The notes under the pieces are model-generated. The model was not told the DNA's origin. It did not search any database and was given only the letters and a program-made list of their open reading frames with translations. Below are positions 7,252 through 64,000 of a stretch of 64,000 nt of DNA, in pieces (position 1 is the first letter of the stretch; the number at the start of each line of letters is the position of its first letter). This stretch comes from Paraphysomonas bandaiensis (lineage: Eukaryota > Protista > Chrysophyceae): NCBI GenBank assembly GCA_965644295.1, contig CBFFRP010000077.1, positions 183,943 to 247,942 of the forward strand, read 5' to 3'. The position numbers and the translations under genes were made by a program.

Positions 7252-7629
7252 TAGCCATCCTGTATACTGTGTAGCAATGAAATACAGAATCTACAAAATT
7301 ACAACAACAAGAATAGGAATAAAATATGCAAAGAGCTGAAATACAGTAGCGTTTAAATATATGCCTTGAATTATTGGTGATCAAAGTGTTGCTACAACCA
7401 CGCTACAACAACACAACCTTACTATCCCTCCTATATTTAATTCAGCGATATACAGTATCTTCTAAAGCCCAATTTGAATCATCAATTAATATAAAGATAC
7501 GAAACCGTATCAGTGGCTGCTTTTGGAAGCTACAATTGTGCTAGTGATTTAGTTCATATTAATAGTAATTGTGTTTACGTGTTTATCACACGTAATAGCA
7601 AACTATTGATTTAAAACACTTGAATTAGA

Positions 7630-7724
7630 CCCTCAACCAAGTCGGACTCGCACCCGCACCATTTTGTGGAGTTCTGGGGGATAAGTACCGGAGAGATTCT
7701 CTCTGGGAAACTAACGTGAGCCGA
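7630..7724 (+). ncRNA. Candidate HDV-like ribozyme at the retroposon 5' end (degenerate copy)
   Basis: Elements occur in HDV order P1-P2-P3-L3-P1'-P4-J4/2-P2': P4 ccggagag/ctctctgg framed by AGTAC...GGAA, then CTAA, then gtgagccga pairing with tcggactcgc; small duplication before P3. Confidence 0.5.
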
Positions 7725-8172
7725 AACATAGTCAGCAGATATTATTCTGCCCACTCATAGCCGAATGCTTGTGTGATACAAGGGACACCAATAAGTGTCA
7801 CTTGTGAAGACGCCTTTGGGGCCTGACGAATAAACAGGCATCCGGGGCAGGGCCCACCTGAAGGGTAACCGGGGTATTAGACTGCCTGCTGAAGTGAAGC
7901 ATCCGGGATGTTCACCTTGAAAACTAAAAAAAACATTCTGCTTGCTCGCGGCGTTTGCTTTGAGCGATAGAGCGGAGGGGTTACACCTTGGTGCTTGCTG
8001 CGACGCACAAGCAACAAGCAGCCTCCGTAGCGTTAAATAGTAGGATAATATAGTTTGAGTTTGTACTAGTTACTTACAGGTAGGCGTCTATCTAGCTTGA
8101 CTGGTGGTTTTCTTCTAGCAATTAAAGTGGTGCTGATTCTTAACGCCTATTCCTATTAGTAAGACCTTCAAT
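7630..8172 (+). mobile_element. Short non-autonomous retroposon, copy 1 (full length)
   Basis: Homologous to 22821-23165, 23914-24297 (-) and 36336-36832; flanked by a 14-bp TSD, acacttgaattaga (7616-7629) / acacttgaaataga (8173-8186); 3' end shared with the LINE remnant at ~21 kb. Confidence 0.85.
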
Positions 8173-8391
8173 ACACTTGAAATAGACGACATCAAGAAAA
8201 GATTTTAAGATTGATTGCCTCCGGTAGTGGAACTGCTTCAACCTATCTTGTCTGGATTATGTTGCTTTATATGCTAATATATATATTAGTACGAAATTGT
8301 GCGATTCAATTTATACTATAGTCCACTACCTTTAAATTAAATACAATCACGTCAATATATTCACATTGTCATCATACATACGTAAGAAATG

Positions 8392-12308: not shown

Positions 12309-12796
12309 GTTTCTAAAAGTAATTTATTCACAATTACAATGATTTGAGGAGTATTCAGTAAGTGGGAGTGGAGTAGAGAGTTAATGGAAAACTATGTCCA
12401 TACCACACAAGTCAGATGGGCGAATGGGCAGTCAGCATCTTATTTTGCGGAAATAAATTGAAGCAATAATACTTTTTATTACTGCTATACAACTACGTCT
12501 AGAATACAGATAATTGCTGCCTCAATAATAGAGGCATCTTTGAACAAAAATACACAAAGGATGCCGATACAGATACCACATGCAGCTAACAACGTGTCTA
12601 CAATATCTGATATAGCATGTGTTCTGTACTTCCCCAATACTCCAGTTTTTTTCACTAAAAACTTCAGATTCTAGAACACATAGTCCGAAAACTAGGAAAT
12701 ATCGAAATACCCTGGTAAATATGTATAGAAAGCAGTCAAAAATATGGACAGCTTGTTCCATACATATATGCTTGTGTTGTACGAGTTCATCCAGAC

Positions 12797-20995: not shown

Positions 20996-22005
20996 TATTG
21001 AAGGTCTTATTATTAGCAATAGGCGTTAGAAACCTGTACCAATATAGTGGCTAGTTGAATGCTAGACATACTAGTTAGACCTCTACCCATGAATAATCCG
21101 TACAAATTCTGTTATCCTACTATTTAACGCTACAGAAGCTGCTTGTGCGTCGCCGCAAGCACCAAAGTGCAACCACTTCCGTTCTTAATGTTGTTTGTGA
21201 GTTTCGCCCTGCTCGTGTGTCTTTGGGCTCACTGGCGCGTGTTGTCCGGGGGTCTCCCCTTGGGATGGTTCCACCAGGCTCTGTGGTACAGGGTTCTGAA
21301 TTAAGGTCCGTAGTAGTGTACCGAGCACTAGATGTGCGTGCTGAGAGGTGAGTCGTGTGGTGGAAGGTGGCGTTGTCTCCATGCATCGTTTGGGCGTCAG
21401 GCATAGATGGAGTTGCCGGAGACGGCGTCTTTGTCTATAGGACCTGATGATTTCATGCTGTCCGGTGCTTTATTCCTGCGTGAATGAGAGGTGGGGTTCG
21501 TGTTTGCGGTGGATGGTATTCCAGTCTGTGGTCGTCTTTGGACTCCTAGTAATCGTAGCACCCTTGAGCGTTTCTGTTTATGTTTTGGACGCGGTCGCGG
21601 GAGTAGCCTAGGGGGTCCTTTGTGTGAGGTAATGTATCGTCGACTTCGATCCTGGATCATTAGTTTTGCTGCAGCGAAAAGCGGTAGAAGCAAGCTGATG
21701 ACCGCTGTTTCAATGTTGCGCAGACCGTGGGGTGTCAAGGGCTCATGGATGTGATCTCCAAAAATCGTCTCGAGTTGTGCAGTGGTGATGGTACCTGTTC
21801 AGAATCTCTCCACCTGTGGCACAGAGGGGTTCCAGGCCCTACTGGATAGTCTCTGTAGCGCAGTGGTGGTCCAGTGGGGTAGGACCGGATTTCTCAGTAC
21901 CTCTTGAAGCGCGTTTTTGTGGCTGTGAAATGCCGATTCCCTAATTTGAGTGATGGCGTCATTTAAGCAGTCTAGGCACATACATGTGCTTGGGGGAGTC
22001 TAGTG
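20996..22005 (-). mobile_element. 5'-truncated, decayed non-LTR retrotransposon (LINE ORF2 C-terminus + 3' UTR)
   Basis: GC-richer island; reconstructed DSPKHMCLDC...IR (HX4C of the LINE zinc knuckle, after removing a 4-bp ATGT duplication); one frame broken by stops; 3' ~180 nt match the tails of the short retroposons. Confidence 0.65.
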
Positions 22006-22820
22006 GTTGTTAAAAATAAGACCTGTAGATAATGATATTGGTGTTGGGGATTAAATGATTGATGTGCTGCCTCAATCCCGTTGATTCAAAATCTGGAAAC
22101 TATGAAAGGTGTACACCTGTGATGGCACAATTTATTGAATTATAATTTAAGTTGTGACGCGGCCAGGGGCATTTACCACGAACCAGACTGATAGTCGTAC
22201 CTTCTTTTCTTATGTGTTCCGCTTTAAAATATCTACTCCAAGGAAACACAAACATACTATATCTACACAGATGTCACGCTGCAGGAAACGATACTGTACA
22301 TAGGGCCCAATAACAACATATTGTAATATATATATTATATATAAATAATTGTAAGTAGTACATACCAGCAGTCACATTGCGTTCTTGTCACACATCTCAG
22401 CTGGCCTTGATACTGATATACACAACCTAACCAAGACTACATGATGTCCCATATTATCATTCATCTCATTAATACTAAAAGGTAATTTTCCTGAACGTTA
22501 CTCACACAACAATCAATTAAAGTTGTAATTTGTATCTCTCATCATTCATATCGCCACAGTGGTTCGCCATTTTGACGTCGTCACTACTACGAACCAATAT
22601 TGTACGATCATTGATAAATACGATCTTATACAGTAGATATATTTTAGTGTCAATAAAAGTTATATATATACGATTTAATTAAATTTATATAATGCTGTTT
22701 TAGCTATAGTAGCCTCACCATCATGTTTAATACATAACCCCACGACTATGATATTATGTGTTGTTTAGACGAATTACACTAATAACTGGGTAGAACTCTT
22801 CTGATCCTTGTGTAAACACA

Positions 22821-23165
22821 CCCTCAACAAAGTCGGACTCGCACCTTTTCGTGGGGTTATGGGAGAGTACTGGAGATATTTATTCGGATAACTAACGTGA
22901 GCCGCATATATATTCCGTAGATATTGTTCTGCCCACTCATAGCCTAATGCTTGTGCGGTACAAAGGGACACTGATAAGTGTCACTTATGTAGACGTCTTT
23001 GGACCTTGACAAATAAACAGGCATCCGGGAACGGGCCCACCTCAAGGACTTCTGGGTTATTGGGCTACCTGCTGAAGTCAAGCATCCGGGCTAATTTACC
23101 TTAGAGACACAGAGAGAGAGCTAAGAAGTGGTTGCACCTTGGTGCTTGCGGTGACGCACAAGCAG
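22821..23165 (+). mobile_element. Short retroposon copy 2 (3'-truncated); ribozyme-like head at 22821-22904
   Basis: ccctcaacaaagtcggactcgcaccttttcgtgg...agtac...actaacgtgagcc head and ggttgcaccttggtgcttgcggtgacgcacaagcag tail segment. Confidence 0.85.
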
Positions 23166-23913
23166 TTTTGATACGCAAAATAGTAGTATATCAGAGTTTT
23201 GCTACACTAATTGTTCTGACGTTTGCTAATAATATCAGACATTCACCACTATGATCATCGGTGCCAACATAATACTGTGTTGCAGTTGTAGTGAACGGAC
23301 CATCTGAATCTACATGTTCTCCTTAACACCAAGAATGGTATTTAAGTTCAATCTCCAATAATGCGATGGTTTATGGAATACCGGAGTCAGCGCAAAGCCG
23401 CGCTCACTTTGGCTATTCAGGAAAAATTTGAGTTCGCACTGTACAGAGTCGAAGCTCTACTAGTTTGGCCGAACACCTCCGATACCACACCAGTTCCTAC
23501 ATTAAATACTAGCATAAAATACGTCACTTGGTATTTGATTGCCACAGATGACGTTGAAACTGTAGCCTGTGAATTTGATTGCCAACACAAGTAAGCGGTC
23601 CTCCCACTTTAAACACATCGTGGGTCGGAGTGATACTCTGTTTCCAGCGCTCAATCCACATCACTTAATATATGTATGTTAACAAGCAGGCTAAATGTCC
23701 GGGAAATGCCTGTGATACCCCTGACATCCTGTAGTATATAAGTGAGTCATTCGTTTGGGTGTTGCTAGAGCTAACTAAAAATTTGATGATGTGATGACCA
23801 AACCTGCTGCACTTACATAAAATACTGACATGAATTAATAAAAGACTTTTATTAAATCCATTGATAATCATCTCTATTATGATCTGGGAGTACTTCTAAG
23901 TTCATAGAGCGAG

Positions 23914-24297
23914 TAATGAATGTTATTATTATTAGCAATAGGCGTTTAAGAGTCAGCGCTTAACTCTGACATCCTACTATTGAATGCTACGAAAGCTGCT
24001 TGTGCGTCACCGCAAACACCAAGGTGAAACCACATTTGCGCTATCACTCCAAGCAAACGCATTGAAAAAGCAGAATGTTGATATATACCTGACACCTGCT
24101 GACATCAAGATTTTGGAGTCCTTAAGGTGAACTAGCCCGGATGCTTGACTTCAGTAGTGATACTTATTAGTGTCCCTTGCACTACACAAGGATTAGGCTA
24201 TGAGTGGGCAGAACAATATCTGCGGAATATATATGCGAAATATCTCCGGTACTCATCCCCCATAACACCACGAAAAGGTGCGAATCCGACTTTGTTT
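23914..24297 (-). mobile_element. Short retroposon copy 3 (internal deletions)
   Basis: Reverse-complement homology to the other copies; candidate TSD aagttcatagagcga (23898-23912) / aaattcatatagcga (24299-24313). Confidence 0.85.
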
Positions 24298-26032: not shown

Positions 26033-26762
26033 GTTTAGAGAGAGGTGTGTGATAAGGTTATGGATGAGAGAGTGGGTTCATATTACTGTGGAGTGTAGTA
26101 ATGAGAACTAGAGCGGGAGGATTATGTATGTATCTATATGTAAAATCACGTACTTGTTACTTTATCTATGTATCTGTAGCATTATACGCATTGTTCTTCA
26201 TGCTGCTGTACTGATGTGTGCATCTTCGCTCCATGTTGCTTGTCGGCATCCTTTGTATATTTTTGTTCCAAGATGCCTCTATTATTGAGACAATAATTAT
26301 CTGTATTCCAGCCGTATTTGTATTACAGTAATATAGATGATTTTTGCATCAATTTACTTCCGAAAAATAAGATATACCATGTACTGCTCTGTATATGATG
26401 TGGATCACAACTATACCCATAAAATACATAGACTACGATGTATACCATGAACTTCAGAGGTAGTTTATCCAATGAAATATTTGACAATTTTAATCATTCG
26501 TAATCATTCGAAAAGGAATATTGAAGTTATATTTACATCCAATGAAAATTGTTATAGTTATATTGGTTTGATGACAATACTTTACTTTTTTCCAATGTTG
26601 ATGTTGAAATACACACTCTGGTTGTTTGTATGCTGTGGATGTATGGATTCTGCTGTATGTGAATGTGTCATCAGACTCATATCGCCACCTCATCACTGAT
26701 ATGATCATATAATACCCTCAAACCTCAGTGTCACATATACTATCAATAGATTTAATATACCA

Positions 26763-42017: not shown

Positions 42018-42578
42018 GTACATACGTACATACATACATACCTACATACATACATACATACCTGCATACCTACATACCTACATACCTACATACCTACCTA
42101 CCTACCTACCTACCTACCTACATACCTACCTACCTACCTACCTACCTACCTACCTACCTACATACATACATACATACATACATACATACATACATACATA
42201 CATACATACATACATACATACAGCTGTACATACATACATACATACATACATACATACATACATACATACATACATACATACATACATACATACAGCTGTA
42301 CATACATACATACATACATACATACAGCTGTACATACATACATACATACATACATACATACATACATACATACATACATACATACATACATACATACATA
42401 CATACATACATACATACATACATACATACATACATACATACATACATACATACATACATACATACATACATACATACATACATACATACATACATACATA
42501 CATACATACATACATACATACATACATACATACATACATACATACATACATACATACATACATACATACATACATACA
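42018..42578. repeat. (TACA)n/(TACC)n microsatellite with CAGCTG interruptions
   Basis: Read directly from the sequence. Confidence 0.98.
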
Positions 42579-42926: not shown

Positions 42927-43139
42927 GGCAGGAGGGTGCACTGATATACCGCTGCCATCCGTTATCTGTACATAGAGATTTTTTTGACGACTACATACAT
43001 AGTGTTTTTACGAAATAAGTATTGTATAGGCAGTATATATGGTTTATGTGTTTAGAATTCGTCTATGCACTGAGTGATTTCCATCAGGCATTTCATAATA
43101 ATGAGTCGAAGTCTATACAAAAAAAGAGTTAGTATCACG

Positions 43140-43414
43140 TGCCCCATTCTGAGCGCGTACTTAGGTAGATCCAGGTGGGGTCCGGGTGGGTACCTAACTA
43201 ATACTTGATTTAAGTCCCATACGTTATTTGCTAGCTACCTACTGAACCCAACTAGCTACATCATTATCACACGGTATTCAGCGCTGAATATGCAGTGAGA
43301 ACCCAGAGTGGGGAACTGCTGAACTAAGCAATGTGTACATAGGTAGATGCGAGCAATCGCAGCACTTACTAGGGGGCCGCACGTAGTGATTAGTTACGCT
43401 GTCAATATGGGGCA
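43140..43414 (+). repeat. 5' LTR
   Basis: Direct repeat of 47957-48231 with 8-bp terminal inverted repeats. Confidence 0.97.
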
Positions 43415-43590
43415 GCTACTCTGTTAGCCGCTTCTATGCCCTTGATATATATTTAGCCTGATACTTAGTTCAACGACTAGCTACACTTGCAACAGGGGAG
43501 TGACGGATAGTAATAATAATATATGATAATCATTATTACTACATCCTTTTCTTATTTTTTTCACAGTTCTCCTGTAGTGTAGTGGCCATT

Positions 43591-44361
43591 TTACTTGGAT
43601 TGAATGGACCGTTTTTCAGAGTTCAATATCGTCTCTTCGTGCTTGATGTCAACGGATGATGGACGACTAAAAATTTTCCAAATAATCAATATAGCAAGGC
43701 ATCCTGGCACCACGTGTATTACTTTTAAGACCACACGCTCAATTATGTGCACTTTATCAATTATTGCATGCAAAAAGCCGAAAGTATTCTTTAGCACGTC
43801 CAATATGATTTCATATATGCCAGCGAACAGTGATGGTATGTAGTCGACGTAATACACAGATTGCAGGGCTATTACCAGTACGATTAATTTACCCAGTGAT
43901 ATTGAAACGAGAGTCCTGAAAATTCCACTTACAAGACTCAACAAACCCGGTATATGGGCTATAATCGCGTACGTAGGTTCATACAAACTCCCAACCAGGT
44001 CAACTATACGCCTCACTAGTGACCTAAAGAACTGTCCCCAAGATTCATTGTTGTCCCTATTTGTGTTTACTCTGTTGTGTCGATAAATACACTTGGCATT
44101 TGAACATCGCCCGTCGTTCCTACATGTTGGAGGGTGGTTGCAAGGGCAAGGGGTGAACGTTTTGCCATAGCCATTTGGGCATTTGTTACCATATTGACAA
44201 GGCTGGTGATCGGAATCGTGTTGGAATGTACAGTTCTTGTTGTAGCATTTAGAGTATGATAGACATCTTGTGTTACGATTACGCATTGTTACAGGGTCAG
44301 ATGGTAAGCAGTCAGTGGTTATAACTTCTTTATAATATCCTTCACTTTCACTTCTATTCAC
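43591..44361 (-). CDS. Cargo ORF: three CCCH-type zinc fingers followed by hydrophobic/TM helices (first ATG 44286)
   Basis: CLSYSKCYNKNCTFQH, CQYGNKC...CPCNH, CRNDGRCSNAKCIYRH; LGKLIVLVIAL and VVPGCLAILIIW hydrophobic segments; intronless. Confidence 0.65.
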   Translation of the reverse strand: MNRSESEGYYKEVITTDCLPSDPVTMRNRNTRCLSYSKCYNKNCTFQHDSDHQPCQYGNKCPNGYGKTFTPCPCNHPPTCRNDGRCSNAKCIYRHNRVNTNRDNNESWGQFFRSLVRRIVDLVGSLYEPTYAIIAHIPGLLSLVSGIFRTLVSISLGKLIVLVIALQSVYYVDYIPSLFAGIYEIILDVLKNTFGFLHAIIDKVHIIERVVLKVIHVVPGCLAILIIWKIFSRPSSVDIKHEETILNSEKRSIQSK

Positions 44362-44709
44362 TTCCGGTTTTCCACAGATTTAATGCATTACAATTTAAGA
44401 TCTTATAGCTAACAGGACACAGGCCGCGGTCCGAAAATTTCCTGGATTTTTCTTCGTCTTGGATTATATGGATATACAGCAGGAATACGTACAGTAGAAG
44501 GTAAGTACAGCAGTGTACAGCAGTGTATATATACCAGCCAGATCTAGGTACTGTACTGTATCCAGGATATGGTATAAGTGTACAGTATGGTGCAGTACGA
44601 ATACCTTCTCATACTACAGCAGTACATACACAGCATAGTAGCTACAGCAGCCAGCACCCACTTAACAAGCAAGATAGATGCATAACCATATCATTCATAC
44701 TCATACACA

Positions 44710-45259
44710 ATGCATTGGATATAAATCACTACTCTTCTCATACTATCCACACCTCATATCGTCTCCAGTGGTGCTATTAATCTCGTGTTAGTGAGGGCTA
44801 CAGGGGATCTTGCACGTAAATACTTATGGGAGAGTATATTCATATAGTTCATAGAGGTACGTATGGGGAACACATACACTCATTCACTGTGTCATATTAA
44901 TATATCTGAAGGGTGACTATGACATGAACGTGTATGCTGCTGCTACTAGACCGTATGATAATGCATGGGCCATCATCGAGCCCGCTGTCAGTGGCTTACA
45001 GTGTAAAGACACGTGGAATAGCGACAGCTGCACTGAAGGCAAGAAAAGATTTATTGAGAGTTTGAAATATGTGCAACTGAGAAATGAAGATCACTATGAA
45101 GGGTTACATGATATGCTTTCACAGTTACCCGAATCCATGAGAATCTTTTACTTATCTGTGTCCCCAAGTCTTTACGAGAACATTGCGGCTACTATCAATA
45201 AAGTTGCACGTCCGAAGGATGCGGCGTTGAGGGTAGTGTTCGAAAAGCCGTTTGGAAAT
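44710..45259 (+). pseudogene. Captured 5' fragment of a hexose/glucose-6-phosphate dehydrogenase (H6PD-like) gene, intron retained
   Basis: Signal-peptide-like start with a TAA; LVLVRATGDLARKYLW (GATGDLA with G>R); a TAG; GT-AG intron ~44857-44911; RIFYLSVSP and LRVVFEKPFG, then truncated. Confidence 0.85.
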
Positions 45260-45368
45260 GTATTATTTCCGTTTTTTACAATTATAAATGAGATGAACTC
45301 TAGAACTTGATGTCTGCTGTGTCCTTATCCTAATATACATAAACGAATGGAACTAGGAATTACAACAG

Positions 45369-45812
45369 TTGACTCGATTGGGAAAACTAATGGGGTTTCG
45401 AATATACGTGGTTGGTAAACACCAATTAGCTAATCGAACTCCCATTCAAAATGAAATGATTATCGTCAACATCGATGACGGCTCCAAAGGTACACATTGG
45501 GTCGCCATATTTTCACGGGGTAAACGTTATTTATATTTCGACTCATTTGCCCTCGCGCCACCAACAAATATCGCGGCGTATATTAAACGTGTGAATGGAA
45601 ATAAAAAAATACCCTACAACAATTCCAAACTACAGGATCCTCGTGCAGAATCGTGCGGTTATTGGTGCGTGCTCTGGTTGGACTATATGAGAAAGCGATC
45701 CATTCTGACAAAATGGTCACTCACCCGAATTCACAACGTATTCACTTCATTATTCAATAATGCAGAACAAAACGAAATCGTATTGCACAAACTATACTCC
45801 GGCTTTTTTTAG
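45369..45812 (+). CDS. Adenain-like (C5-type) cysteine maturation protease of the Polinton/PLV/virophage type; N-terminus possibly truncated
   Basis: IVNID...GTHWVA (His), YFDSF (Asp), LQDPRAESCGYWC (Gln, Cys); in-frame TAG at 45354, first ATG 45390. Confidence 0.88.
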   Translation: MTRLGKLMGFRIYVVGKHQLANRTPIQNEMIIVNIDDGSKGTHWVAIFSRGKRYLYFDSFALAPPTNIAAYIKRVNGNKKIPYNNSKLQDPRAESCGYWCVLWLDYMRKRSILTKWSLTRIHNVFTSLFNNAEQNEIVLHKLYSGFF

Positions 45813-45830
45813 TGCTCTACTAGTAAAAAG

Positions 45831-46301
45831 ATGATCCGCAACGACATAAATCCACTACCCGAGCCACCACGCCCACTGCAACACTCACGCGACGAAGGCA
45901 AGTCGCAGCCACCACTCATTCCCAATAAACGCGTCTTCGGGGTTCTTTTTGAAGGAACGGAACAGGAAATAAAACGAATTCGAGACGAAAAACATGCGTG
46001 CGAATTTTTTAAAGCAGTTCGTACCCATTTAATGTTATTCGACAAATCGCAAAACAAATACAGCGACCGGATATTGCTGTGTACGATGCAATGTGTTGAA
46101 AATTTCATCTTGGGGAAATCACGGGGTTTATTCCGCGAACGACTTGTCATCGAATGTGTGTCTGAATTTTTCGGTGGTGACGAAGATATCATTCGCAAAA
46201 TGATCCAACTCCTCATGCCAAAAATTAAAAACTACAAATGGTTCCGTCGTAACATGAAGAAAGCAATCCGTTTTTTTGCAAACTTGCTTTTGACGAAGTA
46301 A
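45831..46301 (+). CDS. Hypothetical helical protein, probably viral
   Basis: Intronless ATG ORF 18 bp after the protease; basic amphipathic C-terminus; viral origin inferred from context. Confidence 0.55.
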   Translation: MIRNDINPLPEPPRPLQHSRDEGKSQPPLIPNKRVFGVLFEGTEQEIKRIRDEKHACEFFKAVRTHLMLFDKSQNKYSDRILLCTMQCVENFILGKSRGLFRERLVIECVSEFFGGDEDIIRKMIQLLMPKIKNYKWFRRNMKKAIRFFANLLLTK

Positions 46302-46394
46302 CCTCACACCTCACAAGAAAATGGATTCAAATTGGATTTCGATATATCCTTCCACTCATACTCGCCGCCGTGTAATATATACTAGAAAGAAATA

Positions 46395-47194
46395 TTATTC
46401 AGTTGACGACTCAAGACTCCATGTATCACCTGTCAATCTAAAATTGATCGTATTAAACATAGTATAACCGGCGGATGCGATTACAATCCGTATGACTGAA
46501 TATCTCTTTGTTGTTGTCACCGGTTCAGTATATAAAGTTGAGTCTTGAGTAGCGGGAATGCTACGTCATCTATATAACTCCATGTTGTTCCATCATCGGA
46601 ACCAAGGATATAACAAGCTTTCTTTGTTCTTTCCTGTTGTGTGCTTCTTTCCTGTGTTGATATAGATGTCAATCGCATCTTAAAAGGCAATTGTATTTGC
46701 ACCCATTCTCCATCTATGGACTGTGATGTATCAGACATTGTTGAGAAGTAATAATCTGTTCCATTACTGCCTATATAATTACCGGTTGTTCCATCATAAG
46801 CTTCACCAGATGGCATCGCATAAAGAACACCGTCTCTATAATTGTCTATACCATTCGGGCCCGTGTTATTTCTGTTATTCCCCCAGAAAGTCTCGTCACT
46901 ATCATCAAATAACAAGTTACATGAATTTAAAGGATCTACCGTCCTGTACCTACCATATGAAGAGCATTTCAAATTGTAGTCTCCGTTTGCATATGCGGTT
47001 GGACCACTGCCCGCGGAATAAGTTTTCGTCATATGAATGTCAAATACATCTTGACCGTCAAACACCGATCTTAAACCCGTGAAATCATTTGGGAATGTCA
47101 CATCAGATTGATACATGGTGTTGGTGAGTGCGGGTGGGCTTTGGTGGGGGCGGGTTGTATAACTATTAATAAGTAGTGAGAGTGAGCTCAACAT
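46395..47194 (-). pseudogene. Discoidin/F5-8 type C (galactose-binding-like) domain protein with a 1-nt frameshift near 46555
   Basis: GEWVQIQLP...YILGSDDGTTW; the alternate frame continues PATQDSTLYTEPVTTTKRYSVIRIVI...FRLTGDTW...* and completes the fold. Confidence 0.7.
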
Positions 47195-47231
47195 TTTTTG
47201 TTATTACTACATATGGGGTCAGAAAGGGCGT

Positions 47232-47766
47232 TTCTGATTGGTGGAAAAAAACACACATAGATTTTAAATTAATTATAATTTTTCAAAATTTTATGTGTTT
47301 TTTCAAAAAAAACTTGTACGGCAATCAATTTAGGAGGGCTCGGGCATCAAAATTTTATTATATCTATATATATATTCAATTCCGGCGCCCGAATAAAAAC
47401 TAAACTTCAAATCCTCGATTCTGATTGGTGGAAAAAAGCACACATAGATTTTAAATTAATTAAATTTTTCAAAATTTTATGTGTTTTTTCAAAAAAAACT
47501 TGTACGGCAATCAATTTAGGAGGGCTCGCGCGTCAAAATTTTATTATATATATATATTCAATTCCGGCGCCCGAATAAAAACTAAACTTCAAATCCTCGA
47601 TTCTGATTGGCTGAAAATAACACACATAGATTTAAATTAATTAAAATTTTTCAAAATTTTATGTGTTTTTTCAAAAAAAACTTGCACGGCAATCAATTTA
47701 GGAGGGCTCGGGCGTCAAAATTTTATTATATATATATTCAATTCCGGCGCCCAGGGAAAAACTAAA
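47232..47766. repeat. ~2.9 copies of a ~182-187-bp AT-rich tandem repeat
   Basis: Units start ttctgattgg at 47232, 47419 and 47601. Confidence 0.95.
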
Positions 47767-47938
47767 TATCTAATCTTGTCCCTAATTGGAGAAATGGACT
47801 CTAGTCAACCGTGCGGCCTGGTCCACGGCGACTTAGGGTAAGAAAAAAATGGTGGTCAAATGAGTCATGTGGAACACTCTCCTTAGTCACAGTGACCGAG
47901 TTGATCACACATGGGAATGCTGTACTACAGTTGCATTT

Positions 47939-47956
47939 AGGAATACGGGTGGGGGG
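47939..47956 (+). other. Polypurine tract of the LTR element
   Basis: aggaatacgggtgggggg directly abuts the TG of the 3' LTR. Confidence 0.7.
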
Positions 47957-48231
47957 TGCCCCATTCTGAGCGCGTACTTAGGTAGATCCAGGTGGGGTCC
48001 GGGTGGGTACCTAACTAATACTTGATTTAAGTCCCATACGTTATTTGCTAGCTACCTACTGAACCCAACTAGCTACATCATTATCACACGGTATTCAGCG
48101 CTGAATATGCAGTGAGAACCCAGAGTGGGGAACTGCTGAACTAAGCAATGTGTACATAGGTAGATGCGAGCAATCGCAGCACTTACTAGGGGGCCGCACG
48201 TAGTGATTAGTTACGCTGTCAATATGGGGCA
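47957..48231 (+). repeat. 3' LTR
   Basis: Direct repeat of 43140-43414. Confidence 0.97.
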
Positions 48232-48669
48232 TCACGGTTTGGTCGTTCTTGACATCACCGTAATTCGTACCACGTTTAATTCGAGTAGTTAATAGCACTA
48301 CTAACAGGCATTGTACTAAATGTCCATGTCTGCACATACTACTACTAAATATTATATATCATACCCCCTAGTACTATTAACTACTGAGAGCAGTATCGGT
48401 GTTGTCGTAACGGGTGAGTTGGACAAAAGTAATGTTGTCGAGTCTAATGCACACAGATCGGCGTTGCACTTATTATGAATCTCATGTCTAGCAATGCCTA
48501 GTTTGCGATGTGTGTAATTTAGTTCGCTACAATACGACCATGAATAATGTAAAATAGCTATACACCATGCATGTCTTTCTGTCACTGTTACCAAATCACC
48601 AAACAATGTAACATTATTATGGTGCCGTACAACTCCTATATCATGAATAAACTACTGCACGAGCAAATA

Positions 48670-53065: not shown

Positions 53066-53304
53066 TACATACATACATACAGCTGTACATACATACATAC
53101 ATACATACATACATACATACATACATACATACATACATACATACATACATACATACATACATACATACATACATACATACATACATACATACATACATAC
53201 ATACATACATACATACATACATACATACATACATACATACATACATACATACATACATACATACATACATACATACATACATACATACATACATACATAC
53301 ATAC
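53066..53304. repeat. (TACA)n microsatellite with one CAGCTG interruption
   Basis: Read directly from the sequence. Confidence 0.98.
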
Positions 53305-60636: not shown

Positions 60637-61285
60637 GCAAATGCCTGGTAGCTCTTTTTGGTGGGATAAACTGTCATGTCTGTACATTGCTGCTTGATAA
60701 GTTGTCTGGCCTGTGGTTTTGCTAAAAATGATATCCTTCGCTTCACAAATTTTTGAACTATTCTTTATAGCCTCAAGTGGGTGACACTGGCTGTAGTTAG
60801 CGTGTAGCGTGTGTTTCTCGTGCTACTAGAGAAGAGAATAGCTCTACTGTTCAATGAATTAGCGCATATGAAACGAAAATGACGGGGGGGAGTGTAACGT
60901 GTTTCACTTGACATTAACATCCTCACCAAGGTTTCGCTGTACATTGTTCTCTTTTTTTGATATTATTGAAGCATTCTGTAAAAAGTTAATGGCTGCCACA
61001 CCTCTCATTCTGAAAGCGATAAAGCCACTTTACTTTCGAGGAGGAGTAGTAAAAAAACGGGGAGGAGAGGACAAGGGCAAGCCTTTTTCTACCCCACTGC
61101 CCCTCAAGGGGCCTCTTCTCTTCGAGTGTTTCCAATTACAACCTTCGGTTGTAATTCCTTCTCTTTGCTAATTTAACTTTATATATTTTTAATTACTTTA
61201 TATATTATTAATAACTTTTAATTACTTTATATATTATTTATATTCTTAAATAAAATTAATAACTTTATATATTATTTATAATGTT

Positions 61286-61468
61286 TATAATAAAAAGTAA
61301 TATAGATAACAAAGTAGATTTAATAAGTAGATTTAATAGTAGATATAGAGAGAGGGAAAAATTAAAATGAAAAATAATTTAAATTTGTAAAGGTTGTAAA
61401 ACCCCGGGATTCTACCATTAAAACTACTTATTAAATCTACTTTGTTATCTATATGACTTTTTTATAAT
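61286..61468. repeat. ~58-bp imperfect inverted repeat with a 30-bp perfect core
   Basis: tatagataacaaagtagatttaataagtag (61301-61330) vs ctacttattaaatctactttgttatctata (61424-61453). Confidence 0.9.
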
Positions 61469-61605
61469 AATGTATAATGGCAATGCTTAAAGCTCTGGAA
61501 TGTAGTTGTAGTGATATAATGGCGAAGCTTTAAGCAAAAACTCATAAAACCTTGAATTCTAATTTAAATATAGAATATAATAATGTAATGCTATATTATA
61601 TATAG

Positions 61606-63348
61606 ATGTCAATTTATACAAAGCCCAAAACAAGCAATAATGCCATTTTCAATGCAGAAAATCATAAACAGATTGAAACAGCAAGAGTAATATTAAATAT
61701 GGCGGAATATGCAAGATTAGACAATGCTAAATTTACAGCGAATGTTGAAATCTTGAATGGTAATAACTTAACCATAAACAATGAACCCCAAACAGTTGCT
61801 TTCACAGATTCAAAAAATAATATGTTATTAGATATAAACACAAGATTATTAAACCTGACTGAAAATGAAATACAAACATTAGACGGTATAAATACCAATG
61901 AAACTATACAATCACAATTAGATACATTGACAGCAAGTTTTAATGGTCTTGATGCTCTCCAAGATATAGACTTAATTAATATACCGAATTTACAAACGGA
62001 TGTAACAAACTTGCAAACTCAAGATGTTATACTTCAAAATAATATAAATGCTAAACATGATATAATCGATCTGAATAATAAGTTAGATTCTGGATTAGTT
62101 TATGACTCTACATTTACTGACACAATTGATAATATTATTTCTAGTTTGAATGCTCAAATAACAAGCAATGACACAGATATAACAAACTTACAAAGTGACA
62201 AACACGATTTAATAGATGTAAATAACAAGTTGGATTCTGGATTAGTTTATGACTCAACAGAATTAAACACAATGGATAATATTATTTCTAGTTTGAAAAA
62301 TCAAATAATAAGCAATGACACAGACATAACAAACTTACAAAGTGACAAACATGATTTAATAGATGTAAATAATAAGTTGGATTCTTCATTAGTATATGAC
62401 TCAACAGAATTAAATACAATAGATAATATAATAGTAAATTTACAAGGTCAAATAACAAGCAATGACACAGATATAACAAACTTACAAAGTGATAAACATG
62501 ATATAATCGATGTAAATAACAAGTTGGATTCTTCATTAGTGTATGATTCAACAGAATTAAACACAATGGATAATATTATTTCTAGTTTGAAGACTCAAAT
62601 AACAGGTAATGATACAGACATAACAAACTTACAAAGTGACAAACATGATTTAATAGATGTAAATAACAGGTTAGATTCTTCATTGGTATATGACTCAACA
62701 GAATTAAATACAATGGATAATATTATTTCTAGTTTGAAGACTCAAATAACAGGTAATGATACAGACATAACAAACTTACAAAGTGACAAACATGATATAA
62801 TCGATGTAAACAATAAATTGGATTCTTCTTTAGTTTATGACTCTACATTTACTGATACAATTGATAACTTGCTAAGTACAATAGACGGCAATATTACAAC
62901 ACTTGAAAATACAAAATTGAATTTAACAGGCGGAACAATGACAGGAAATATAACAACTAAACAAATAAGCGAATCCATCAGCACAACATATACGTTTTCT
63001 TCAAATGTGTTGACATATAATTATAGCAATGGTTCAATCATATATTTCAATGGTTTAATAAGTGATACAAATTTTGAACTTGATATAACGAATATTAATT
63101 CAAGTAACTTAACAAATACAAGTTTTACAGTTTCTGTTTTAATAGACACTTCAACATATAAGGCATATATAAACACTTTAAAAGTTAATACAGTTTCAGA
63201 AACGTTGAATGTATCAGGAGGACTCGCAAATATTAATGTAGACGATGTGACAACATCAGGAGCAATATTACAAACAATAACAATAATATATACTAATTCA
63301 GGAACATCACCAACGAAAGTAATATCAAATGTAGGTTCATATTATTAA
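61606..63348 (+). CDS. Virion fibre-like protein with ~5.5 x 49-aa repeats
   Basis: N-terminal MSIYTKP...IFN; 147-bp repeats from 62053; KLNLTGGTMTG tail-fibre motif; beta-rich C-terminal head. Confidence 0.7.
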   Translation: MSIYTKPKTSNNAIFNAENHKQIETARVILNMAEYARLDNAKFTANVEILNGNNLTINNEPQTVAFTDSKNNMLLDINTRLLNLTENEIQTLDGINTNETIQSQLDTLTASFNGLDALQDIDLINIPNLQTDVTNLQTQDVILQNNINAKHDIIDLNNKLDSGLVYDSTFTDTIDNIISSLNAQITSNDTDITNLQSDKHDLIDVNNKLDSGLVYDSTELNTMDNIISSLKNQIISNDTDITNLQSDKHDLIDVNNKLDSSLVYDSTELNTIDNIIVNLQGQITSNDTDITNLQSDKHDIIDVNNKLDSSLVYDSTELNTMDNIISSLKTQITGNDTDITNLQSDKHDLIDVNNRLDSSLVYDSTELNTMDNIISSLKTQITGNDTDITNLQSDKHDIIDVNNKLDSSLVYDSTFTDTIDNLLSTIDGNITTLENTKLNLTGGTMTGNITTKQISESISTTYTFSSNVLTYNYSNGSIIYFNGLISDTNFELDITNINSSNLTNTSFTVSVLIDTSTYKAYINTLKVNTVSETLNVSGGLANINVDDVTTSGAILQTITIIYTNSGTSPTKVISNVGSYY

Positions 63349-63402
63349 AAATTAATTTAAAGAAATGAAAATATTAAAGAGTAGAAAAGAGTAGAAAAGA
63401 AA

Positions 63403-64000
63403 ATGCCCATTGATTACAGTAAAGGTAAAATTTATAAAATTGTTAACTCTGATGAGTCATTAGTTTACTACGGCTCTACGTGTGAACCAACACTAGCAAA
63501 ACGATTGGCAAAACATGTGAGTGATTACAAACAATATCAAAAAAACAAAAAATATACATCTTCTTTTGACATTATCAAAACAGGAGACTATAAAATATCA
63601 CTCGTAGAAAACTATCCATGTTTAACAAGAGACGAATTACATTCAAGGGAAGGATTTTATATAAAAAACAATAAATGTATTAACAAGTTAATTGCAGGAC
63701 GAACACAAAAACAATATCATGATGACAACCGAGAATTACTTATTGAATATAAAAAGAAATATTATGAAGATAATAAAGATAGACTCAATTTATTAAAACA
63801 AGAGTATTATGACAAAAATAAAATTAAAGTAAAAAATTACGCTAAACAGTGGAGGAAAGATAATAAAGATATTTTGAAACAAAAAAAACGTGCATATTAC
63901 GAAAAACATAAAGCAGAGATATATGAATGTGTATGTGGTTCAAGATGTTTAAAAAGTACAAAATCAAGACATCTTAAAACAAAAAAACACATGGATTATA
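63403..64000 (+). CDS. GIY-YIG endonuclease with C-terminal C2H2-like zinc finger (runs off the window; absent from the ORF track)
   Basis: MPIDYSKGKIYKI...VYYGSTCEPTLAKRLAKH...LVENYPC...ELHSREGFYI...CINK; tail CVCGS...RHLKTKKH. Confidence 0.92.
   Translation, partial: MPIDYSKGKIYKIVNSDESLVYYGSTCEPTLAKRLAKHVSDYKQYQKNKKYTSSFDIIKTGDYKISLVENYPCLTRDELHSREGFYIKNNKCINKLIAGRTQKQYHDDNRELLIEYKKKYYEDNKDRLNLLKQEYYDKNKIKVKNYAKQWRKDNKDILKQKKRAYYEKHKAEIYECVCGSRCLKSTKSRHLKTKKHMDY

Follow-up and report, generated by a model that had tools for sequence, protein, structure and literature searches.

A unit with identical LTRs and no gag-pol holds Polinton-like-virus genes and host DNA in Paraphysomonas bandaiensis

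We analysed a 64-kb stretch of DNA (the window) from the marine protist Paraphysomonas bandaiensis and found in it a 5.1-kb unit that has the ends of an LTR retrotransposon and an interior made of other genes. The reading we lean towards, which we hold to be somewhat probable, is that this is a non-autonomous LTR retrotransposon copied by a partner element, and that it took up viral genes and host sequence through stepwise capture. The first-pass annotation had proposed an enzyme-less LTR-type unit that holds Polinton-like-virus genes together with host DNA, and our analysis supports this.

Ends and architecture of the unit

The locus is bounded by two 275-bp LTRs (43140-43414 and 47957-48231) that are 100% identical by self-BLAST, begin with TGCCCCAT, end with ATGGGGCA and are of the TG...CA type. 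An exact TCACG duplication flanks them, for which the yardstick is a chance match of about 1 in 1000 for any given 5-mer. The 17-mer adjoining the right LTR holds 14 purines, and only 1.1% of background 17-mers are as rich. These marks had been read from the letters at first pass and all held up, and a chance pair of solo LTRs is rejected as a reading of the locus. The features are as follows, with the basis of each in brackets.

43135-43139, plus strand: left target-site duplication TCACG (sequence)
43140-43414, plus strand: 5' LTR, 275 bp, imperfect inverted repeat at its ends (self-BLAST)
43415-43590, plus strand: 5' internal region, no TGG-type primer site (common to one sister element)
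43591-44286, minus strand: CCCH gene, 231 aa, intact, antisense (sub-cutoff Pfam, fold, contigs)
44287-44700, no strand: single-copy spacer (unbroken contig with CCCH start and H6PD piece)
44701-45330, plus strand: H6PD pseudogene piece (Pfam G6PD_N, homologue alignment)
44710-44856, plus strand: H6PD exon 1, signal-peptide-like start, 2 stops
44857-44911, plus strand: H6PD intron, 55 nt, GT..AG (interrupts the colinear homologue match)
44912-45259, plus strand: H6PD exon 2
45260-45303, plus strand: H6PD intron, 44 nt, GT..AG, then 9 codons of exon 3
45347-45812, plus strand: predicted adenain (clan CE) capsid-maturation protease gene (relatives, profile and PDB matches)
45831-46301, plus strand: 156-aa ORF, intact (MMETSP match)
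46395-47116, minus strand: discoidin (F5/8 type C) gene (Pfam F5_F8_type_C)
47232-47766, no strand: three 182-bp tandem units, CpG-rich (repeat search)
47729-47939, plus strand: 3' internal region (common to LTR-family members that differ further upstream)
47940-47956, plus strand: polypurine-tract-like 17-mer (composition; variant present in a deletion sister)
47957-48231, plus strand: 3' LTR, same sequence as the 5' LTR (self-BLAST)
48232-48236, plus strand: right target-site duplication TCACG (sequence)

The unit lacks gag and pol, as had been claimed. Scanned for motifs in all six frames, the interior shows no CCHC knuckle, no aspartic-protease motif and no HHCC of an integrase; its lone YxDD match lies within the discoidin gene, and the two GPF tripeptides in it carry no information. 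Pfam searches of eight frames in or near the unit returned G6PD_N (E 4.6e-13), F5_F8_type_C (8.3e-7) and CCCH matches below cutoff, with zero retroelement families. Genes for capsid, packaging ATPase, replication and integrase are likewise absent from the unit, so it is not a complete endogenous Polinton-like virus or virophage. Rfam gave no matches, and the window holds no tRNA genes.

LARD and TRIM elements have an LTR pair, a target duplication, a purine tract and a conserved non-coding interior, and lack gag-pol. The unit has the LARD-type features of direct TG...CA LTRs, a 5-bp duplication, a purine tract and no gag-pol, and like LARDs its interior exceeds 4 kb. It differs from both classes in that no primer site was found, in an interior of intact and broken genes and in its protist host.

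The ends could also be taken in another way. The termini of each LTR form an imperfect inverted repeat, matching at 8 of 8 and at 18 of 24 positions (P ~5e-6 for the latter), which is longer than an LTR needs. In a check for a TGG start, no tRNA-type primer site was found after the 5' LTR, and self-priming pairing there is not above that of shuffles, 61% of which are equally good. The 275-bp sequence might then be a MITE-like unit with 24-bp imperfect inverted ends, two direct copies of which carried the intervening DNA by cut and paste, using a gypsy-integrase-like transposase or a viral integrase. The inverted ends, a unit depth in the hundreds and the missing primer site favour such a composite DNA transposon, which would also account for the kept introns and missing donor of the H6PD piece. 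We nevertheless find it distinctly improbable: the purine tract beside the right unit persists even in a deletion variant, and many variants of the 275-bp unit exist (seen as identity bands), so identity of the two is not the default. Reverse transcription naturally yields identical direct ends.

Host and viral cargo

The CCCH protein has three CCCH-like fingers, below the Pfam cutoff, and two long helices. Its gene has two genomic copies, with an LTR next to the sister copy, and RNA contigs ending at 44366-44375 cover it; RNA cover is missing over 44471-44776 and the repeats, which we do not count as evidence. Protein-pattern scans gave no true relative, and the predicted fold (pLDDT 60) is too weak, its fold search giving no matches at E < 0.001. 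This antisense gene probably belongs to the LTR family as an accessory gene; a part for its protein in handling unspliced element RNA is a guess.

The H6PD piece is present in one copy by depth and is about 86% identical (14% diverged) to a separate single-copy, native-like contig. Both introns survive, in the same sense as the RNA presumed for the element and with intact GT..AG ends, and because of them a spliced mRNA retrocopy is rejected. The kept introns together with the single copy are not predicted by ordinary LTR retroposition of mRNA. The host piece does lie inside the unit, as the first-pass annotation had said, but that annotation had not anticipated its two introns and its single copy.

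The identity of the protease rests on its relatives, as the protease alone gave no Pfam match. In a family of 40 sequences H53, Q99 and C106 are invariant and D68 is kept in at least 90%; the best PDB match is the adenovirus proteinase (E 4.9e-9), and Peptidase_C5 is matched by 23 of the 40. Judged by these sequence comparisons it is a true adenain (Peptidase_C5, clan CE) with a predicted His-Asp-Cys triad and oxyanion Gln, in agreement with the initial naming. The copy in the unit has a frameshift near its start, and full-length 157-aa relatives exist at 94-97% identity. A Pox_A32 ATPase, the packaging ATPase of Polinton-like viruses, accompanies the protease relatives in all five viral contigs scanned (21 were fetched). 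A tblastn search of phage records found none, and the sole locus matching the protease pattern (L001) was rejected as an unrelated phage. The predicted fold of the protease (pLDDT 41) is too weak to use and gave no fold-search matches at E < 0.001.

The intact 156-aa ORF has an MMETSP transcript product 99% identical to it and differs from its sisters mostly at silent positions. No homologue of it was found in the 21 viral loci and no true relative in a protein-pattern scan; its Atlas score of 0.88, with Preplasmiviricota clusters in the top three, is below the level of trust. The discoidin gene, whose relatives are high-copy, lacks 1 nt at 46556 when set against most sister copies, a frameshift that leads to an early end at 46517. 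The downstream frame has no Pfam match alone and was assigned via the sister insertion. For discoidin the protein-pattern scan gave no true relative and PHROGs one match of unknown function, and scans of P0011 and P0016 were also without a true relative.

Observed over expected CpG is 1.53 in the protease and ORF and 1.72 in the repeats against a host mean of 0.74, and no background window is as high. With no homologue of the 156-aa ORF found among the 21 viral loci and no CpG enrichment in the discoidin gene, the protease alone can be called viral in origin with firmness. The cargo had also been described as decayed, which fits the two stops of H6PD, the protease frameshift and the 1-nt loss in discoidin, but not the CCCH gene and the 156-aa ORF.

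Sister copies, assembly and timing

Contigs and depth were compared in 8 of 24 listed public runs, in which sisters are visible as short contigs only. The LTR has a depth of roughly 240-490 times single-copy in two DNA runs, the purine tract about 13-19-fold and the protease with the 156-aa ORF about 5-8-fold. Downstream of the ORF some 3 of 8 depth units (about three copies) take the window's path to discoidin. One sister has discoidin joined straight to the purine tract and LTR (joint 46929 to 47954, in 3 of 4 runs); it has lost the 1024 nt before the right LTR and kept a variant of the purine tract, as expected if plus-strand priming needs it. Another copy has this LTR in reverse inside the protease gene (loose end 45535, in X3 and X7). 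The 5' internal region is found in two contigs, with 0 and 22 differences and both beginning at 43433, and has only about two copies, whereas the 3' internal region is in many, including family members with other upstream DNA (loose ends 47729 and 47854 in X7; depth in X3). LTR patterns had no matches in metagenome, viral and prokaryote-genome collections.

Because the sisters join the LTR to viral genes in several arrangements, the viral block is linked to the LTR family at several sites rather than being a single nested virus. Among the findings that would overturn it, the first-pass annotation had named a later nested insertion, with a viral block that has its own TIRs and TSD and is absent from sister copies. 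The block has no such inverted ends (within the unit, self-BLAST gave no match on the minus strand at E < 0.01), sisters do link viral genes to this LTR, and a whole nested virus is rejected.

The same sisters bear on a rival account in which the interior was remade at the site itself. In that case an ordinary member of the family would have inserted and had its interior replaced or extended at the DNA level, by gap repair or by ectopic recombination with a sister bearing the viral block, so that the mosaic was never one RNA; LTR identity would come from a young insertion or from gene conversion. The kept introns and single copy of H6PD, the many deletion or replacement joints among sisters (15 in one listing of contigs) and the unequal copy number of the 5' and 3' halves suit this account. 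It is unlikely all the same: if capture was recent, the 14% distance of H6PD from its only other copy means that the donor is missing here too, and if capture was old, complete conversion of 275 bp is required.

An artefact of assembly or polishing could have joined pieces of different loci between LTR copies or made the LTRs identical. Nearly every part is repetitive. Among the listed contigs none covers the unit from end to end and none crosses the H6PD-to-protease joint near 45330 or the joint of the left flank to the LTR, nor was a spanning long read found; at the other LTR edges contigs overlap the LTR by only 28-29 letters, below the 31-letter bridging rule. On the right side a single-copy contig runs without a break from 48204 past the LTR end into the flank (X1 and X3). 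Yet the 5-bp duplications match, and a 1038-nt contig (44216-45253) links the CCCH start, spacer and H6PD piece with 0 differences in two samples, X1 and X3. An 867-nt contig equals 46272-47138 with 1 difference, and the viral block carries 14 differences of its own relative to the majority contig; polishing had thus not turned it into the consensus. We regard such an artefact as very improbable.

The viral block is 2.6% diverged, at which level identical LTRs have a probability of 7e-4; at the 14% of H6PD it is about 1e-18. Provided that LTR identity marks the last LTR copying event, the cargo diverged before that event.

Proposed history and meaning

Insertion by an LTR integrase is likely, and graded no higher because no partner element and no primer-binding site were found. 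The identical LTRs, TG/CA ends, 5-bp duplication and purine tract count for the favoured reading, as do the depth of the tract, its persistence in the deletion sister, the varied upstream DNA in the family, the reversed LTR in the protease gene, the path to discoidin that about three copies have in common, the ATPase found with the protease relatives, the high CpG, the low chance of LTR identity at the divergence of the cargo and the published retrotransposons nested in such viruses. Against it stand the kept H6PD introns, the single H6PD version with no donor copy seen, the search for a tRNA-type or self-priming site that found none, the absence of matches to the LTR in the collections searched for a gag-pol partner, the few copies of the 5' internal region beside the many of the 3' region, the long inverted LTR ends, and a viral origin that is firm for the protease only. 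A stepwise capture might have begun with insertion of the LTR family into endogenous Polinton-like viruses. Read-through or recombination of a nested copy would then have put the protease-ORF-discoidin-repeat stretch before the family 3' end, giving a small sub-family that carries it, and one lineage would have picked up the H6PD 5' end from DNA or unspliced RNA. Finally, unspliced RNA of the whole unit would have been reverse-transcribed, its identical LTRs remade, and integrated with the TCACG duplication.

A bolder version, which we think quite unlikely, would make the protease-ORF-discoidin block a maintained, expressed module of the LTR family. The family would have made morphogenesis genes of Polinton-like viruses its own, and an antisense RNA-binding gene would keep its RNA unspliced. 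Viral DNA and host DNA with introns would in this way be carried around the genome, by a hybrid of retroelement and virus or by an antiviral cassette that the host tolerates.

The errantivirus env is known to come from a baculovirus. Several published systems resemble the unit in part. LTR retrocopies derive from spliced mRNA in Tan et al. 2016 (PMC5131818), where Bs1 is named; there as here internal ORFs are replaced by partial host-gene copies with several parents per unit, and further rounds follow as a non-autonomous element, but here the host piece has two introns and the remaining cargo is DNA-virus genes. Retrotransposons nested in virophages or Polinton-like viruses (PMC8547959, PMC10120064, PMC12220804), and one virophage situated within an Ngaro element (PMC8547959), also entangle retroelements with such viruses, as does our sister with an LTR in the protease gene. 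In those accounts either an element has broken into an entire virus or an entire virus lies nested, whereas the unit described here has only a fragment of a virus, one that lacks inverted ends and forms an interior part common to several LTR-bounded copies. Bdelloid LTR retrotransposons with env from paramyxoviruses (PMC5408684) share viral genes in the 3' part and small extra ORFs with membrane segments; the env cases described concern envelope or enzyme ORFs carried by autonomous elements, and ours is a capsid-maturation protease, broken, with its neighbours. In Aedes, sequence of RNA viruses is captured under the direction of retrotransposons (PMC6797480), which likewise gives retroelement-linked viral fragments as possible silencing-RNA templates, an idea that the first-pass annotation had put forward speculatively for the unit; the source here is a DNA virus. 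Our literature search, which reached few subscription papers, turned up no account of an LTR element with genes of Polinton-like viruses as cargo.

Polinton-like viruses are numerous in protist genomes and are known targets of retrotransposon insertion. The locus suggests a reverse flow, in which pieces of virus leave inside an LTR element and spread with host DNA. Were the unit no more than decaying debris in a genome full of repeats, the importance would be modest. The kept introns raise the question of how an LTR-type unit copies its cargo without splicing. If true, the reverse flow would be a route for shuffling genes between virus and host, and it would scatter stray viral genes, which are then counted as virus insertions.

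Boundaries of the unit and the surrounding window

The LTR-bounded unit runs from 43140 to 48231. The first-pass annotation described it as carrying identical 275-bp LTRs with TG...CA ends and a TCACG target site duplication, and sequence comparison agrees: the two ends are identical to each other, starting with TGCCCCAT and finishing with ATGGGGCA, and TCACG adjoins the unit on left and right. A motif scan likewise bears out the claim that motifs of gag, aspartic protease and integrase are absent from the interior; the single YxDD there falls within the discoidin gene. The right end is preceded by a 17-mer with 14 purines, a count that 1.1% of background 17-mers reach.

Features of the unit and its neighbours
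Left neighbour: unannotated frame
43591-44286, antisense: CCCH gene
44701-45330: H6PD piece
45347-45812: protease gene
45831-46301: 156-aa ORF
46395-47116, minus strand: discoidin gene
47232-47766: repeats
Right neighbour: end of an importin-like gene (weak Pfam hit)

In two samples contigs cross the right junction into the flank without a break, at single-copy depth, and give no sign of an empty allele. Contigs of the left flank stop at 42983 and 43008 (window 42983-43139), which means that the 130-150 bp before the left LTR are variable or repeated. In two runs a contig joint connects one LTR start to another (43140-43167 and 47957), perhaps because the LTR is truncated or the family has a very short member.

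Elsewhere in the window, 61140-64000 is an AT-rich block (GC about 0.27, hairpin at 61285-61470) with two notable ORFs, one of 580 aa that contains 147-bp repeats and one of GIY-YIG type (Pfam 5e-6), and is likely the left end of a viral insertion unrelated to the LTR unit. A dispersed family of about 500 bp, 72-85% identical and in both orientations (7629-8173, 20996-21185, 22820-23251, 23912-24296 and 36336-36839), is probably an older non-autonomous element. Long TACA microsatellites adjoin genes at 42019-42578 and 53066-53304, and 12437-12567 and 26243-26373 form a 131-bp inverted pair, 86% alike.

Host and viral cargo

The H6PD piece opens with a signal-peptide-like exon and has two stops. 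With its two GT..AG introns (55 and 44 nt) taken out, it aligns to two H6PD homologues over three exons, the third ending after 9 codons, 16 nt ahead of the protease start; host introns are short. A separate 2007-nt single-depth contig, taken as the native H6PD gene, matches 44701-45253 over 548 nt, with 77 differences and 7 gaps. The kept introns and this divergence indicate that the cargo is an old copy, made from DNA or from RNA that had not been spliced. In two samples one unbroken 1038-nt contig, with 0 differences and at single-copy depth, carries the element's version together with the CCCH gene start. An assembly artefact is unlikely, although among the contigs listed none bridges the joint between the H6PD piece and the protease.

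Judged by sequence, the protease gene is an adenain, as initially proposed. A full-length relative 95% identical to it counts 2299 relatives of its own (E up to 0.001); among 40 of these aligned, H53, Q99 and C106 are invariant, D68 is nearly so, and 23 match Peptidase_C5. The best solved-structure match of the profile is adenovirus proteinase (E 4.9e-9). The window copy is frameshifted near its start. Of 21 viral contigs retrieved with protease relatives, 5 were scanned, and all 5 also encode a Pox_A32 packaging ATPase. The proteases of these loci share only some 30% identity with it, and no homologue of the ORF that follows occurs in any of the 21, so they point to no particular donor virus. 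That 156-aa ORF is intact, and 7 of the 12 codons differing from the commonest sister version are silent (expected 21%, P 0.005), an excess indicating that it diverged as a working gene.

CpG observed/expected is 1.53 for the protease-ORF stretch and 1.72 for the 182-bp repeats, values reached by no equal-sized background window (mean 0.74); the discoidin gene, at 0.87, is not set apart from background. PMC12220804 reports that Polinton-like viruses can have discoidin domains. In each of the four runs of DNA type, most sister contigs carry 1 nt more than the window's discoidin gene. Summed depth is extreme in one sequencing run (X1) over 46443-46473, in the downstream part of this gene (27818 at 46443). 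The unit is not a complete Polinton-like virus.

Sister copies and RNA contigs

Contig depth, only a rough guide to copy number, was 240-490-fold that of single-copy contigs for the LTR, 13-19-fold at the purine tract, 5-6-fold for the 5' part of the protease, about 8-fold for the 156-aa ORF and 3-4-fold along the ORF-to-discoidin path. Past the ORF stop other copies run into different DNA (3 of 4 runs), which places part of the viral block in a second context, perhaps that of a fuller virus. In one sister the middle of the discoidin gene runs straight into a purine-tract variant followed by the LTR (3 of 4 runs); in another a reversed LTR start is joined, at 45535, to the inside of the protease gene (2 of 4). 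The stretch 47729-47956 is common to other family members, which diverge upstream of it, and the LTR-adjacent region with the CCCH gene has a second copy at about 92-95% identity.

Sequence of the host, a eukaryote, is contained in marine runs and an MMETSP transcript, which points to a marine protist. RNA contigs, which give neither strand nor level, include a polyA metatranscriptome contig spanning 43400-44371 with 1 difference and contigs of the majority type carrying the protease-ORF stretch. The discoidin region of this copy is matched by an 867-nt contig that differs from it at 1 position. Two other runs, of guessed type (one as RNA, one listed as DNA), have contigs that stop at 44375 and 44366, positions past which DNA contigs continue; this hints weakly that an RNA begins a little upstream of the antisense CCCH gene.

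Origin of the unit

The reading we favour is that of a non-autonomous LTR element assembled in steps. Were the LTRs as old as the cargo, their identity would have a chance of 7e-4 at 2.6% divergence, which makes it likely that the unit moved when its cargo had already diverged. Several results count against this reading: no donor copy was seen among sister contigs, no primer site was found after the left LTR, no autonomous partner was found in the metagenome, viral and prokaryote-genome collections searched, and the 275-bp repeat has 24-bp inverted ends. An interior rebuilt in place seems rather improbable to us, and a composite DNA transposon somewhat more so.

In the way it works the unit resembles the cargo-bearing LTR units that Tan et al. 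describe (PMC5131818); however, those are defined by intron loss in the cargo, which is not the case here. LTR elements capturing viral genes are known for envelope genes (PMC5408684), and a literature search of incomplete coverage, supplements excluded, found no report of an LTR unit with a Polinton-like-virus protease block. LTR elements export unspliced RNA, at least one with an accessory protein (PMC10309623), thus kept introns are possible for such an element. From sub-cutoff Nab2-type finger matches we would guess that the CCCH protein may export unspliced element RNA. Under the LTR-element reading, the family would insert into endogenous viruses, as retroelements do in other protists according to PMC10120064, PMC12220804 and PMC8547959; viral DNA would have come to sit ahead of the family's 3' end and been copied a few times, and one lineage would have acquired the H6PD piece.
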